Shown here piece by piece: positions 10,433-17,904 of a stretch of DNA of 64,000 nucleotides (the first letter of the stretch is position 1; each line of letters begins with the position of its first letter). The translations under genes were made by a program, and so were the position numbers. The DNA is taken from assembly GCF_055900595.2 (NCBI RefSeq), contig NZ_CM148325.1; one strand, written 5' to 3'. A model generated the notes under the pieces. The model was not told the DNA's origin. It did no database searches and saw nothing but the letters and a program-made list of their open reading frames with translations.

Positions 10433-12898
<2,466 letters not shown>

Positions 12899-12915
12899 GT
12901 TCACTAAAAAATAGA

Positions 12916-12944
12916 ACGGGGCCAAATCGGTCCCGTTTTTTTTT
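12916..12944 (+). terminator. Rho-independent terminator of the glg operon (ACGGGGCC-aaatc-GGTCCCGT + T9)
   Basis: GC-rich hairpin immediately followed by nine T residues, 18 nt after the glgP stop. Confidence 0.75.
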
Positions 12945-12992
12945 GCCTTTATTTCGGAGAAGTGTCCAGAGGGGCAAGGGGACTCGGGGGAG

Positions 12993-12998
12993 TATAAT
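12993..12998 (+). promoter_or_regulatory. Candidate -10 hexamer (TATAAT) upstream of the PstS-like module; no convincing -35
   Basis: Perfect TATAAT seen ~20 nt upstream of the first ORF of the insert; spacing to any TTGACA-like hexamer is poor, so this is tentative. Confidence 0.25.
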
Positions 12999-13015
12999 TT
13001 CGCCATTCAGAAAGA

Positions 13016-14533
13016 ATGGAAAGAATAATGCAAAACAGAAAATGGATTTTGACCTCGCTGATAATGACTTTTTTCGGCATCCCCATACTGACGCAATTTT
13101 TGGCAGCGGTTATTGCCATGCTGGGGGCCGGGCTTGCCGCTATTCTTGAGGTTTGCAATTTTCTCTTTACGCCAACAATTTATCTTCTACTCAACGTCTT
13201 TATGCTGACGCTGGGGGCGATAATTCTATTTTTCTCTGGTCGCGTGTGGGCCGGTGATAGCGCACCAGAAAACAGAGAAATAGCCGTCTGGCGGCAATGC
13301 TTTTTTCTTTTACCTGCACTGTTAACTCTGGTTGGCTGGATAATCACGCTACATCTGGCAGATTATCAATTTCGCCAAATGGGAGCAGGTTGGTTGGCAG
13401 AGCTTATGCTCCCCTGGCTGGGAGTTTTGTTAGTCTCATTAGTCGGAGGTGAGTTCTGGTGGATAGTCATTATACCCGTTGGTGCGCATATTAGTTTTTC
13501 GCTGGGGTATGGCTGGCCGACCAGATATCCTTTAACCGGCACGTACGGGTTACGTTGCCGTAATTCCCTCCTGTTTATCCTTCTTATGCTTGGTTTTATC
13601 GCTGGTTATCAGGCTTATTTATATAAACAGCTTAATCCCGGCGTCGGTGTGCGTGAAAATATTGATACCTGGGCCTGGCGACCCGATAAACTCAATAATC
13701 AACTGACGCCACTGCGTGGTAAACCGCAAATTCAGTTTACACAAAACTGGCTGCGACTCGATGGTGCTACGGCGGCGTACCCAATTTATGCTTCTGCCTT
13801 TTATGCGTTGAGCGTTATACCGGAAGATTTCCACACCTGGGAATATCTGGAGAACTCTCGTACCCCCGATGCATATAACAGGATTGTTAAAGGTGATGCC
13901 GATATTATTTTTGTGGCGCAACCTTCCGGTGGGCAGAAAAAACGCGCAGAGGAATCGGGCGTCACTTTGAACTACACTCCTTTCGCCCGTGAAGCATTCG
14001 TTTTCATCGTCAATGCGGATAACCCGGTTAATTCCCTGACTGACCAACAGGTGCGTGACATCTTCAGTGGCGCAATTACCAACTGGCGTACTGTTGGCGG
14101 TAACGATCAGGAGATCCAGACCTGGCAACGCCCGGAAGACTCTGGCAGCCAGACAGTGATGCAATCGCAGGTCATGAAAAATGTCCGCATGATCTCGCCG
14201 CAGGAAACCGAAGTGGCAAGCATGATGGAGGGAATGATTAAAGTTGTTGCCGAATACCGTAATACAAACAACTCAATAGGCTACACCTTCCGCTATTACG
14301 CAACACAAATGAACGCTGACAAGAATATCAAATTAGTAGCGATTAACGGTATTGCACCGACTGCGGAAAATATTCGTAACGGCAAATATCCGTATATCGT
14401 CGATGCCTTTATGGTAACGCGGGAAAATACTACGTCAGAAACACAAAAACTGGTCGAATGGTTTTTAACGCCGCAGGGGCAGAGTCTGGTGGAAGATGTG
14501 GGTTATGTACCGTTGCATACAACAATGAAATAA
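13016..14533 (+). CDS. Fusion protein: N-terminal polytopic membrane domain (~200 aa) + C-terminal PstS-like (phosphate-binding-protein-like) periplasmic domain
   Basis: 505-aa ORF; the N-terminal part has several long hydrophobic segments; the C-terminal part carries the motif QQVRDIFSGAITNWRTVGG...RPEDSGSQTVM, which I recognise as typical of PstS/PBP-like-2 binding proteins. Start could be ATG 13016 or 13028. Confidence 0.7.
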   Translation: MERIMQNRKWILTSLIMTFFGIPILTQFLAAVIAMLGAGLAAILEVCNFLFTPTIYLLLNVFMLTLGAIILFFSGRVWAGDSAPENREIAVWRQCFFLLPALLTLVGWIITLHLADYQFRQMGAGWLAELMLPWLGVLLVSLVGGEFWWIVIIPVGAHISFSLGYGWPTRYPLTGTYGLRCRNSLLFILLMLGFIAGYQAYLYKQLNPGVGVRENIDTWAWRPDKLNNQLTPLRGKPQIQFTQNWLRLDGATAAYPIYASAFYALSVIPEDFHTWEYLENSRTPDAYNRIVKGDADIIFVAQPSGGQKKRAEESGVTLNYTPFAREAFVFIVNADNPVNSLTDQQVRDIFSGAITNWRTVGGNDQEIQTWQRPEDSGSQTVMQSQVMKNVRMISPQETEVASMMEGMIKVVAEYRNTNNSIGYTFRYYATQMNADKNIKLVAINGIAPTAENIRNGKYPYIVDAFMVTRENTTSETQKLVEWFLTPQGQSLVEDVGYVPLHTTMK

Positions 14534-14558
14534 CTTTTGAGAGAACGGAATCAGCGCG

Positions 14559-15551
14559 ATGAATAAATTCATAGGCGTTTTACTGCTAGGTGCGGTTTTA
14601 CTGGCGGGATGTGTCGACCGGGAAGGGTACTATAACAGCGTCAGGGAAGAAGAGAGTCATGGACTGACGTCTCTGCGGGGGCAACCTGAATTACGTTACA
14701 ACGATGATTGGTCAAGATGGCCGAGAGTGTACGGCGCTACAGCCTTATACCCGCTGTATGCCTCCGCGTATTATGAATTAGTACCCGAGCCAAAAGATAA
14801 GGATCGAACCTCGCTGGCCTGGCAGGCGTATGGTTTGCAACAAACCCGAACAGCTGAAGCCTACGATAGTCTGATCAAGGGTACCGCGACGGTTATTTTT
14901 GTTGCACAACCGTCGGAAGGACAGAAAAAACGTGCAGAAGAAGCAGGCGTTAAACTGAAATATACCGCGTTTGCCCGCGAAGCCTTTGTCTTTATCGTTG
15001 ATATCAAAAACCCGGTTAATTCACTTAGCGAACAGCAGGTCAAAGACATTTTTAGCGGTAAAGTGAGTCGCTGGAATAAAGTGGGCGGCGGTGACGAAAG
15101 TATAAAAGTCTGGCAGCGGCCAGAAGATTCTGGAAGCCAAACGGTTATGAAGGGACTGGTTATGCAAGATACTCCAATGCTGCCAGCCAAAAAATCCACT
15201 GTTATCGATCTTATGGGCGGTTTAATTACCGAAGTCGCCGACTACAAAAATACACCATCTTCTATTGGATACACTTTCCACTATTACGTCACACGTATGA
15301 ATGACAATATGCTCAAAATGCGCAAACAGATCAAACTGCTGGCTATAAATGGCGTTGCACCTACAGAGGAAAATATCCGTAACGGCACTTATCCGTACAT
15401 GATTGATGCTTATATGGTGACGCACGAAACCCCTACGCTGGAAACGCAGAAATTCGTCGACTGGTTTTTAAGCCCGCAGGGACAGCAATTGGTAGAGGAT
15501 GTGGGGTATGTGCCGATTCATGACGCATCATACGAATCATCAGTGCAATAA
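14559..15551 (+). CDS. PstS-like periplasmic binding lipoprotein (paralog of the C-terminal domain of the upstream gene)
   Basis: 330-aa ORF; N-terminus MNKFIGVLLLGAVLLAGC has a signal peptide with lipobox (LAGC); aligns by eye with the upstream ORF, e.g. IFVAQPSEGQKKRAEEAGVKLKYTAFAREAFVFIV against IFVAQPSGGQKKRAEESGVTLNYTPFAREAFVFIV. Confidence 0.75.
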   Translation: MNKFIGVLLLGAVLLAGCVDREGYYNSVREEESHGLTSLRGQPELRYNDDWSRWPRVYGATALYPLYASAYYELVPEPKDKDRTSLAWQAYGLQQTRTAEAYDSLIKGTATVIFVAQPSEGQKKRAEEAGVKLKYTAFAREAFVFIVDIKNPVNSLSEQQVKDIFSGKVSRWNKVGGGDESIKVWQRPEDSGSQTVMKGLVMQDTPMLPAKKSTVIDLMGGLITEVADYKNTPSSIGYTFHYYVTRMNDNMLKMRKQIKLLAINGVAPTEENIRNGTYPYMIDAYMVTHETPTLETQKFVDWFLSPQGQQLVEDVGYVPIHDASYESSVQ

Positions 15552-16153
15552 TGATGAATAAAATCAGACTTTATATTCCTCCGTTAATTCTTGGTTTTGT
15601 TATTGTGCCGTTGTTGGTGTGGCCGACGGTGGTTGCGCTGGCTGCTTCTGTTATCACGCTGAGTTTTCTGGGAGAGATACTGTTCTCTATCCCGCTCATG
15701 ATCAGGCGTATTTCACTTCTGCAATTACAACTATGGTTATCGGCTGAATATGCGCTTTTCTGCTGTGCAATGGTGGGCGTTGGTTGGCAATTTGCTCGTA
15801 TAACTCAATCTGAATTGAAAAGCAGACTGCATTGTTGGCTGGTATTTGCACCAGTTTATTTCTGGTTGCTCCTGTGGAATATCATTTTCTATGTCGCGCC
15901 AGCGAATATTGCGTTGCTGGAGAATATGCGCAGTTTCTTTCTGACAGTTGTCTGGCTCCCACTAAATTTTTCGCCATTTTGGTCTCAACCGTGGATTGAC
16001 TTTGTCGGTCCAATAAGCGCACAGCTTGGTTTTGCGTTGGGATATTATTGCCAGTGGCGTAGCAAAAATAGAAGCCAGATACGGAAGTGGAGTGAGTGGG
16101 GAACGTGCCTGAGTTTTGTTACGTTGGGTATGATGGCGTGGGCTTTGCGGTAA
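15551..16153 (+). CDS. Small polytopic membrane protein, paralog of the N-terminal membrane domain of the fusion gene at 13016
   Basis: 200-aa hydrophobic ORF; its start overlaps the upstream stop (TAATG); segment FVGPISAQLGFALGYY resembles IPVGAHISFSLGYGW in the N-terminal domain of the 505-aa ORF. Confidence 0.6.
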   Translation: MMNKIRLYIPPLILGFVIVPLLVWPTVVALAASVITLSFLGEILFSIPLMIRRISLLQLQLWLSAEYALFCCAMVGVGWQFARITQSELKSRLHCWLVFAPVYFWLLLWNIIFYVAPANIALLENMRSFFLTVVWLPLNFSPFWSQPWIDFVGPISAQLGFALGYYCQWRSKNRSQIRKWSEWGTCLSFVTLGMMAWALR

Positions 16154-16205
16154 TTCCCTGACTCAAAAAGTAGGTCAGATTGTTGACAAAGTGCGCTTTG
16201 TTCAT

Positions 16206-16302
16206 GCCGGATGCGACATGAACGTCTTATTGGCCTACAAGACCATGCAAATTCAATATATTGCATAAGCCACGTAGGCCTGATAAGCGTAGCGCATCAG
16301 GC
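16206..16302. repeat. Pair of REP elements (BIME-like) in opposite orientation; the second forms a hairpin followed by T6
   Basis: gccggatgcgacatgaacgtcttattggcctac (16206-16238) and gtaggcctgataagcgtagcgcatcaggc (16274-16302) match the E. coli REP palindromic-unit pattern; followed by agttttttg. Confidence 0.6.
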
Positions 16303-16365
16303 AGTTTTTTGTTTATCATCAGTCTCAGGTCAGATTGAAATCTGACCTGGCCACCTTACGTTAAT

Positions 16366-17871
16366 TTACGACGCCAGCGACAACCTCTGCTGCGTATATT
16401 CCCCTAGCCACTGACTCACACGGGATTGTTGCTGCGCATTCAGCCACATGCCTTGTTTTGTGCGACGCCACAGGGCATCGTCGGCGCGGCGGACCCATTC
16501 GTGGTCGACCAGATATTTCAGCTCCGCTTCGTAGAACTCATGACCGAAATCCTCCCCGAGGTCGCTTACCGCCCCCGCGTTGCCGAGCAGCAGCTCGCTA
16601 TTGCTGCCGTAAGTGCGTGCGTAATGACGTGCCAGCGATTCAGTCAGGAACGGGTAACGGCGGCGCAGGCGGGCGGCATAATCGTCGCGATCGCCTTCAA
16701 TGGCACCACCCGGCAGCACGCTCTCTTTCGTCCACGCCGGGCCAATGCCCTGATAATACGGCGTCAGTTTTTCCAGCGCGTGCTCCGCCAGTTTGCGGTA
16801 GGTGGTCAGCTTACCGCCGAATACTGATAACAGCGGAGCTTTGCCGTTTTCATCATGGATATCAAGGGTGTAATCACGGGTAATGGCCTGCGGCGAATCG
16901 GACTCATCATCACACAGTGGACGCACGCCGGAGTAGGTCCAGACGATATCATCCCGGCTTAGCTGCTTTTTAAAGTGCGCGTTATACACTTTCAGCAGGT
17001 AATTGATTTCACTCTCTTCAATCTTCACCGCTTTCGGATCGCCTTTATACTCCACATCGGTGGTACCGATAATGGAAAACTCGTCCATCCACGGGATCAC
17101 GAACACAATACGCTTATCTTCGTTTTGCAGAATGTAGGCCTGCTTTTGGGTATGCACGCGCGGCACCACAATATGGCTGCCTTTGATCAGGCGAATGCCA
17201 TAAGGCGAAGGCAGATGCATCCCGTCGTCGAAGAACTGTTTCACCCACGGGCCGGTGGCATTCACCAGACCGCGTGCCTGCCAGCTGTATTTTTTACCGG
17301 TATCAATATCTTCTGCTTCTACAATCCACAGGCCGTTTTCGCGGCGAGCAGAAGTGGCGCGAGTCCGGGTAAGCACTTCACCGCCTTTACGCACCACCAT
17401 CTGGGCGTTGGCGAGTACCAGACGCGCATCGTCTACCCAACAGTCGGAATATTCGAATCCGCGCTTAATTTCCGGTTTTAACACTGAATTTGCGCCAAAA
17501 CGCAAACCGGTAGATCCCGGCAGGCTGGTACGCTTACCCAGATGATCGTACATAAACAGACCAATACGGATCATCCACGCCGGACGCAGATGCGGGCGAT
17601 GCGGCAGGCGAAAACGCATCGGGAAAGCGATATGGGGAGCCATTTTCAGCAACACTTCACGTTCAGCCAGCGCCTCGCTGACCAGGCGGAATTCATAGTG
17701 CTCAAGGTAGCGAAGGCCACCATGAATGAGTTTTGAACTGGCGGAAGAGGTCGCACAAGCGAGATCCTGCGCCTCCAGCATCAGCACGGATAAACCGCGT
17801 CCAGCGGCGTCTGCCGCGATACCAGCACCATTGATGCCGCCACCTATCACAATCAGATCTTTGGTTTCCAT
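16366..17871 (-). CDS. glpD: Aerobic glycerol-3-phosphate dehydrogenase
   Basis: ORF 16366..17886; the recognised N-terminus METKDLIVIGGGINGAGIA (FAD-binding GxGxxG) begins at the internal ATG, giving 501 aa. Confidence 0.96.
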   Translation of the reverse strand: METKDLIVIGGGINGAGIAADAAGRGLSVLMLEAQDLACATSSASSKLIHGGLRYLEHYEFRLVSEALAEREVLLKMAPHIAFPMRFRLPHRPHLRPAWMIRIGLFMYDHLGKRTSLPGSTGLRFGANSVLKPEIKRGFEYSDCWVDDARLVLANAQMVVRKGGEVLTRTRATSARRENGLWIVEAEDIDTGKKYSWQARGLVNATGPWVKQFFDDGMHLPSPYGIRLIKGSHIVVPRVHTQKQAYILQNEDKRIVFVIPWMDEFSIIGTTDVEYKGDPKAVKIEESEINYLLKVYNAHFKKQLSRDDIVWTYSGVRPLCDDESDSPQAITRDYTLDIHDENGKAPLLSVFGGKLTTYRKLAEHALEKLTPYYQGIGPAWTKESVLPGGAIEGDRDDYAARLRRRYPFLTESLARHYARTYGSNSELLLGNAGAVSDLGEDFGHEFYEAELKYLVDHEWVRRADDALWRRTKQGMWLNAQQQSRVSQWLGEYTQQRLSLAS

Positions 17872-17904
17872 GCTGCCCTCATTCACTTTCGTTAAAGCTC
17901 ATAA

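Follow-up and report, generated by a model that had tools for sequence, protein, structure and literature searches.

The closest described relatives of the genes considered here are the periplasmic phosphate-binding proteins PstS of the PstSCAB transporter, with the nearest structures being those of the short PstS from Clostridium perfringens (4gd5 and 4q8r) and of proteins from Vibrio cholerae (1twy), Synechocystis (Sll0540, 9l8j), and Streptococcus pneumoniae (4exl and 4lat). ATP-binding cassette (ABC) importers with permease-fused binding domains, the GlnPQ and OpuA types, are known from Gram-positive bacteria. In Pseudomonas aeruginosa, PstS is the signalling ligand of the chemoreceptor CtpL (reviewed in PMC8050422). 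Here a 64,000-nt stretch of DNA (contig NZ_CM148325.1 of assembly GCF_055900595.2, hereafter the window, to which all positions refer unless a locus number is given) was analyzed for the content of its glgP-glpD spacer. The spacer, positions 12899-16365, contains three intact co-directional genes on the plus strand, designated open reading frames (ORFs) 1 to 3 (Table 1), and is an O-island 133 (OI-133)-type allele of a known, common accessory locus of E. coli. RefSeq labels two of the genes 'PstS family' and the third 'hypothetical protein'. The genes are already annotated and the island already named; the family is uncharacterised and its usual name probably misleading, and thousands of genomes name these genes phosphate ABC transporter binding proteins.

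Comparison with the described systems revealed both likenesses and differences. The module shares the fold of PstS (Foldseek E ~1e-14, TM up to 0.81) and most of its ligand positions (Thr10, Ser38, Arg135, and Ser139-Gly140-Thr141), but the Asp56 position is not kept in the module family, the binding domains have only ~20-24% identity with PstS and score under the NCBIfam cutoffs, and members of the family are never found beside pstCAB and are always fused to or paired with a polytopic membrane domain of their own. ORF1 resembles the GlnPQ and OpuA importers in having a binding domain joined covalently to a polytopic membrane domain, on the outer side of the membrane. In those importers, however, the membrane domain is a true ABC permease that works with an ATPase, whereas that of the module has no similarity to PstC, PstA, or a known transporter fold and comes with no ATPase. 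The CtpL case sets a precedent, since there a ligand-loaded PstS-type protein addresses a membrane receptor and not only a transporter; its PstS, in contrast, is an ordinary soluble transporter protein from the pst operon, and no chemoreceptor or kinase is linked to the module family.

At the fold level the binding domains of ORF1 and ORF2 belong to the PstS/PBP_like_2 superfamily (class II binding-protein fold). Both matched Pfam PBP_like_2 (PF12849), at residues 246-485 of ORF1 (3.9e-30) and residues 94-306 of ORF2 (1.6e-29), and the C-terminal part of ORF1 was 57% identical to ORF2 over 292 residues (E 3e-118). When the PDB was searched with the binding-domain sequences, the matches were phosphate-binding proteins only, and a PHROG search returned only the generic family 'phosphate transporter subunit'. 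The AlphaFold model of ORF1 (pLDDT 85.6, pTM 0.71) matched 4gd5 best among PDB structures (Foldseek E 9.5e-15, TM 0.81), and the top 28 matches were all phosphate-binding proteins. ORF2 is a predicted lipoprotein, as read from its signal peptide, MNKFIGVLLLGAVLLAG followed by C, which ends in the pattern [LVI][ASTVI][GAS]C; the lipobox L-A-G-C comprises residues 15-18, encoded at 14601-14612. A first-pass annotation of this DNA had described three intact frames of 505, 330, and 200 aa, a fusion of a polytopic membrane domain with a PstS-like domain in ORF1, and a PstS-like lipoprotein in ORF2 whose binding domain is a clear paralogue of that of ORF1. All of these descriptions held, the PstS assignment being borne out both by sequence (Pfam) and by fold (Foldseek).

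The membrane domain proved to be duplicated as well. In ORF1, residues 2-206 form six long helices according to hydropathy and the AlphaFold model. ORF3 alone had no match in Pfam or the PDB. Using hhalign, the membrane profile of the ORF1 family aligned with the ORF3 family from end to end (probability 97.9%, E 5.8e-13, 167 columns), while one reversed and 20 column-shuffled controls all remained below 1%. Furthermore, an exhaustive hidden Markov model (HMM) search of 1.84 billion representative proteins with an ORF1-family membrane profile built without ORF3 sequences recovered the representative of the ORF3 cluster (E 7.5e-11). Together, the profile alignment and the library search identify ORF3 as a stand-alone copy of the ORF1 membrane domain. 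The module therefore encodes a single unit in two versions, fused in ORF1 and divided between ORF2 and ORF3, where the two halves come in the reverse order. A Pseudocitrobacter locus contains an intermediate arrangement, in which a gene for a lipoprotein binding domain is followed by an overlapping membrane-domain gene still bearing remnants of a binding domain. In the window the ORF2 stop codon and the ORF3 ATG overlap by one base (TAATG), and ORF3 is translationally coupled to ORF2. The duplication reported in the first-pass annotation thus stood for the binding domains but fell short of its full extent; besides the paralogy of ORF3, that annotation had missed the known OI-133 island, the widespread solo-gene family, and the swappable nature of the middle gene.

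The fused architecture occurs as a solo gene in many phyla. Full-length homologues were found in Escherichia, Klebsiella, Salmonella, Phytobacter, Budvicia, and Rahnella, and remoter ones in Bacillota, Actinomycetota, Spirochaetes, Verrucomicrobia, Bacteroidota, and other Proteobacteria. Across 80 loci from many phyla, a polytopic N-terminus was present in ~70 of the 80 gene calls, with three helices in Bacillales (proteins of ~385-400 aa) and five or six elsewhere. Clustering of the 1,194 ORFs of these loci yielded no conserved gene neighbour, only local synteny (such as tyrS, htpG, and a small multidrug resistance (SMR) pump) being recurrent. In Bacillales the gene is single-copy and syntenic, and in enterobacteria the fused gene occupies the inter-operon sites glgP-glpD, ruvC-yebB, and purB-phoP. 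The extra domains of longer family members were WG repeats, a coiled coil, and an unknown C-terminal extension, none of them catalytic. The membrane domain is rare (171 representative clusters in the HMM search); among the further matches listed, ~78 were fused to this binding domain and 34 were stand-alone proteins of 150-260 aa, the remainder being fragments. The membrane domain pairs almost only with this binding domain. Because the pairing is exclusive, ancient, and kept when the genes are split, the membrane domain is taken to be a functional partner of the binding domain and not a mere anchor.

No part of a transporter was found with these genes. ABC ATPase motifs were absent from every ORF of the window, tblastn searches of the window for PstC and PstA gave no match, and the three ORFs had no Pfam match to a BPD_transp_1-type ABC permease, in keeping with the earlier remark that no ABC permease or ATPase is encoded nearby. 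The possibility of the membrane domain being a hidden ABC permease, which the first-pass annotation had named as a check on its own proposal, was rejected on the basis of hhalign comparisons with PstC and PstA (probability <=0.2%). Fold searches with the membrane domain returned its own family only and no known transporter fold, and no conserved polar residue was found within the membrane helices, where P23 and Q199 alone are near-invariant. No ABC transporter genes lie beside the Klebsiella, Salmonella, and Rahnella homologues, and a pst operon context was found at 0 of ~90 loci examined.

These observations bear on a second explanation, in which the RefSeq name would be correct as to function and ORF1 and ORF2 are extra PstS-type proteins that pass orthophosphate to the housekeeping PstCAB encoded elsewhere, with the membrane domain serving as an anchor near the permease. 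Many bacteria have several PstS paralogues, and the binding proteins of Gram-positive bacteria are tethered. The PHROG matches and the retention of the PstS fold and of most PstS ligand residues are consistent with this explanation. It is nevertheless considered unlikely, since a conserved bundle of three to six helices that co-evolves with the binding domain, and persists as a gene of its own where the unit is divided, goes far beyond the needs of an anchor, and since the genes stand outside pst operons at the ~90 loci examined, score under the curated PstS cutoff, do not conserve Asp56, and have no Pho box.

In order to compare the ligand sites, the phosphate ligands of E. coli PstS (Thr10, Ser38, Asp56, Arg135, Ser139, Gly140, and Thr141) were mapped to ORF1 via profile alignments, and the corresponding columns were counted in 71 family members from many phyla. 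Thr10, Ser38, Arg135, Ser139, Gly140, and Thr141 corresponded to T252, T283, R372, S376, G377, and S378 of ORF1, each conserved in 71/71 members, although the invariance of T252, which lies in the GATA motif, is in part a product of the search pattern used to find the loci. Asp56 corresponded to Q302 (also Q in ORF2) in a region where the alignment is profile-based and not structure-based, and this column was variable (G 26, Q 12, A 11, and E 9 of 71). In PstS, Asp56 is the acceptor that selects protonated phosphate over sulfate; with this specificity residue missing, the ligand is probably a phosphate-type anion of uncertain identity. Family-specific residues were also evident, P303, S304, Q371, and Q379 each being present in 71/71 members, E326 in 69/71, and Q307 in 68/71. 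From the conservation pattern, the site looks like a constrained oxyanion site. At residue 237 (15267-15269) ORF2 has a His in place of the Arg of the motif GY(T/S)FRYY, which is found in 52/71 family members, and the ORF2 allele of O157:H7 has the same Arg to His change. Ligand or affinity may thus not be the same for both binding domains.

The same features would suit a ligand other than free phosphate. The cleft could bind an envelope molecule (such as a lipid carrier, a phospholipid, lipid A, or a teichoic-type or glucan polymer) by a head group of phosphate or pyrophosphate, and the membrane domain would hold it at the membrane surface to serve in sensing or in maintaining the envelope. 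Loss of Asp56 and the position of P303, S304, Q307, E326, Q371, and Q379 in cleft-lining segments are compatible with such a ligand, as are the conservation of the gene as a solo gene in Gram-positive and Gram-negative bacteria alike and the AlphaFold model of ORF1, in which the binding domain sits almost directly atop the membrane domain with ~4 residues between the last membrane helix and the first soluble strand. In the absence of an enzymatic or lipid-handling signature, of conserved polar residues in the helices, and of an envelope-gene neighbourhood, this explanation is regarded as quite unlikely.

The lack of a transporter and of a known transporter fold, the lack of conserved polar helix residues, and the invariant anion site together point to a tethered receptor. 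Our tentative interpretation, held at a little short of an even chance, is that each unit acts as a transporter-independent, membrane-tethered receptor for a phosphate-type anion. The close apposition of the two domains in the AlphaFold model of ORF1 is likewise in its favour. Each unit consists of about six family-specific membrane helices and a PstS-fold domain predicted on the periplasmic side. The PstS-fold domain would close around a phosphate-type anion, for which orthophosphate is the first candidate, where the inner membrane faces the periplasm. The membrane domain would be the dedicated partner that anchors the binding domain and may relay its occupancy to the products of genes lying elsewhere, such as those of the Pst-PhoU-PhoR machinery, and would not itself move the ligand. 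ORF2 would dock on ORF3, rebuilding the fused form without a covalent link. The sensor or tethered-binding-protein role suggested in the first-pass annotation is compatible with all of the findings, and that interpretation is in this respect partly supported. A bolder variant is a long shot. In it, a new type of membrane device that works without an ABC ATPase is built from the PstS-fold domain and the helical bundle peculiar to it, and serves either in uptake gated by the binding protein or in signal transduction, with a phosphate-type anion as the ligand; if this were true, such a device would be conserved from Bacillota to Enterobacteria and would have been overlooked because automated annotation says 'PstS'.

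Several points weigh against the tethered-receptor interpretation. The binding domains scored 119 and 121 bits with TIGR02136, far under its curated cutoff of 206.6, and TIGR00975 gave 17 bits against a cutoff of 205, so the domains fall outside PstS as curated in NCBIfam. The variable Asp56 position leaves room for a different oxyanion, or for a phosphoryl group carried by a larger molecule, as the ligand, and the invariance of the GATA motif derives in part from the search pattern. Sites with <=3 mismatches to the Pho box consensus were absent from the window, where weaker sites are possible. The membrane domain carries no cytoplasmic output domain, which makes the proposed signalling route a guess. 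The residue at +2 after the putatively lipidated Cys of ORF2 is Val, which by the usual E. coli rule directs a lipoprotein to the outer membrane, away from ORF3. Moreover, ORF3-like genes are maintained by selection in alleles without ORF2, so ORF3 cannot serve solely as a dock for ORF2. A literature search on yzgL, the locus tags, OI-133, Sll0540, YbbD with Rhs, and PBP_like_2 returned microarray and screen mentions and no functional study of any member. The sole expression datum for the locus is low, mildly RpoS-repressed expression (PMC2907692).

Family members are in no case found alongside a transporter and always bring a membrane domain of their own; the annotation thus probably hides an unstudied use of the PstS-type fold. 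The split copy beside the fused ORF1 offers a natural experiment on the need for contact between binding domain and membrane domain, and with the locus present in O157:H7 and BL21-type strains but not in K-12, its function is readily testable by deletion and transfer. A screen in enterohaemorrhagic E. coli (EHEC) provides a lead, in that deletion of OI-133 lowered type III secretion, a result with no follow-up there (PMC3378721, PMC10877973).

In E. coli the module is a variable but maintained part of the genome. Among 5,426 complete genomes, full-length ORF1 was present in 3,347, ORF3 in 2,053, and ORF2 in 884, and the whole module was found in 883, whose carriers include O157:H7 and a BL21 derivative. 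The alleles of the window fall in a rare, divergent E. coli lineage and differ from the known counterpart module by 8-9% at the protein level in ORF1 and ORF2 and by ~6% in ORF3. K-12-type genomes have only yzgL at the site, annotated as incomplete, as the first-pass annotation had stated for K-12; this pseudogene corresponds to a single 2.8-kb deletion of the module with an 8-nt overlap at the junction. Ratios of nonsynonymous to synonymous substitution rates (dN/dS) were 0.13-0.20 for ORF1, 0.11 for ORF2, and 0.18-0.35 for ORF3, compared to 0.01 for glgP, and the range of 0.11-0.35 holds even at a dS of ~1. These values indicate that all three genes are maintained by purifying selection. The view of the genes as decaying remnants without present function could appeal to their loss from K-12 and many other strains without obvious cost and to the low reported expression; the three intact frames, the dN/dS values, the presence of full-length ORF1 in more than half of the genomes, and the conservation of the family across phyla make it extremely unlikely. 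For ORF3 by itself, decay was rejected on the basis of its dN/dS.

The polymorphism is also old. Allelic dS of ORF1 was 0.27-0.38, compared to a glgP baseline of 0.03-0.15, and this raised dS marks the locus as an old gene-content polymorphism. The 3' part of glpD (window 16366-17500; loci L002-L005) had a dS of 0.15-0.29 between strains, compared to 0.03-0.15 for the 3' part of glgP, and looks like an extension of the old allelic diversity of the spacer into glpD. The middle gene, ORF2, is a swappable cassette. In many E. coli genomes it is replaced by two unrelated cytoplasmic proteins of 236 and 255 aa (L003 2849-4329, L006 9838-10958, L009 9534-10657, and L030 11502-12978), which in Pfam, NCBIfam, and PHROG matched nothing except for a 45-residue YbbD-like N-terminus in the 236-aa protein. 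Homologues of the 236-aa protein lie 3' of the fused gene, in some cases alongside a YbbD_head protein, and come from E. coli, Klebsiella oxytoca, Salmonella, and Pseudocitrobacter.

A further relative lies in a Salmonella enterica Rhs orphan array (L013 2229-9909), which holds two PstS-fold lipoprotein paralogues together with Rhs core-end fragments, an HExxH toxin-like ORF, an Ntox34 fragment, and a HEAT-repeat protein. A PAAR-Rhs N-terminal fragment lies 3' of each paralogue, within ~60 nt of copy 1 and at ~600 nt from copy 2, where a 108-aa membrane ORF stands between. Exactly those array segments are absent from a sister strain (L109).

The old, cassette-swapping polymorphism of the locus would be accounted for if the periplasmic PstS-fold proteins were immunity, decoy, or entry-exclusion factors in inter-bacterial or phage conflict. 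The strain-variable gene content (0 to 3 binding-domain paralogues, with unrelated cassettes in the place of ORF2), the YbbD-like neighbouring cassettes, the allelic dS above the glgP baseline and reaching into glpD, and the location of the two Salmonella paralogues in a toxin/immunity array, with a PAAR-Rhs N-terminal fragment following either of them closely, are all in agreement with a role in conflict. However, PAAR and Rhs pieces are found in the Salmonella array only and no toxin gene is present in the window, and the Salmonella paralogues lie upstream of PAAR-Rhs fragments and not downstream of a toxin tip, where an immunity gene is expected. Furthermore, none of the 8 proteins tested matched the anti-phage models of PADLOC, the Bacillales gene is single-copy, syntenic, and housekeeping-like, dN/dS is well below 1, and an invariant anion site fits the binding of a ligand better than that of a toxin. 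A role in conflict is therefore considered very unlikely, and the tethered receptor remains our preferred interpretation.

Table 1. Features of the glgP-glpD region, by position in the 64,000-nt window.
Feature	Position	Strand	Remarks
glgP	10451-12898	+	left flank of module
Intrinsic-terminator-like hairpin 3' of glgP	12913..12949	+	11-pair stem, then T-run
Perfect TATAAT hexamer, candidate -10 element	12993..12998	+	sequence reading alone
ORF1, fusion of membrane domain and PstS-fold binding domain	13016..14533	+	505 aa
ORF1 membrane domain, residues 1-206	13016..13633	+	helices 2-46, 53-81, 87-114, 124-144, 149-169, 177-206
Segment absent from K-12-type genomes	13250..16093		blastn of K-12-type locus L005 vs window
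ORF1 PstS-fold periplasmic binding domain, residues ~246-500	13751..14515	+	Pfam, Foldseek; includes GAT 250-252, T283, R372, S376-G377-S378
ORF2, PstS-fold lipoprotein, paralogue of ORF1 binding domain	14559..15551	+	330 aa
ORF3, stand-alone paralogue of ORF1 membrane domain	15551..16153	+	200 aa
REP/BIME-like palindromes and glpD terminator hairpin, outside module	16154..16365		sequence
glpD	16366-17886	-	right flank of module

The hairpin that follows glgP splits the module off from the glg operon. A consensus scan upstream of ORF1 yielded no full -35/-10 pair; the TATAAT hexamer lies 18-30 nt 5' of the possible ORF1 starts. The start itself is ambiguous. RefSeq places it at 13025 (ATA, giving 502 aa), and ATG codons lie at 13016 and, following GGAAAG, at 13028. 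Downstream of ORF3 lie palindromes of the repetitive extragenic palindromic (REP)/bacterial interspersed mosaic element (BIME) type; because of them, a query with the spacer matches E. coli genomes at a median of 18 places each. An Rfam scan of the region found nothing beyond a sub-threshold match to the small RNA ES036 (CssrF) at 16239-16281, inside a REP element of these repeats (35.4 bits, compared to a gathering score of 37.6).

At the other enterobacterial sites, paralogues of the fused gene were observed between ruvC and yebB in Salmonella and another enterobacterium and between purB and phoPQ in Rahnella (L023 8001-9806, L025 8001-9497, and L010 8001-9485). The allele of E. coli TA054 (L026 6988-13064) has the fused gene and two further binding-domain paralogues, three in a row, and is flanked by secreted proteins of ~141 aa made up of 'RD.NGN..G' repeats; a similar repeat protein is encoded at the equivalent site in Pseudocitrobacter (L015 9216-9659). 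The G+C content of the module in the window was 0.44-0.49, compared to 0.51-0.57 in its flanks.

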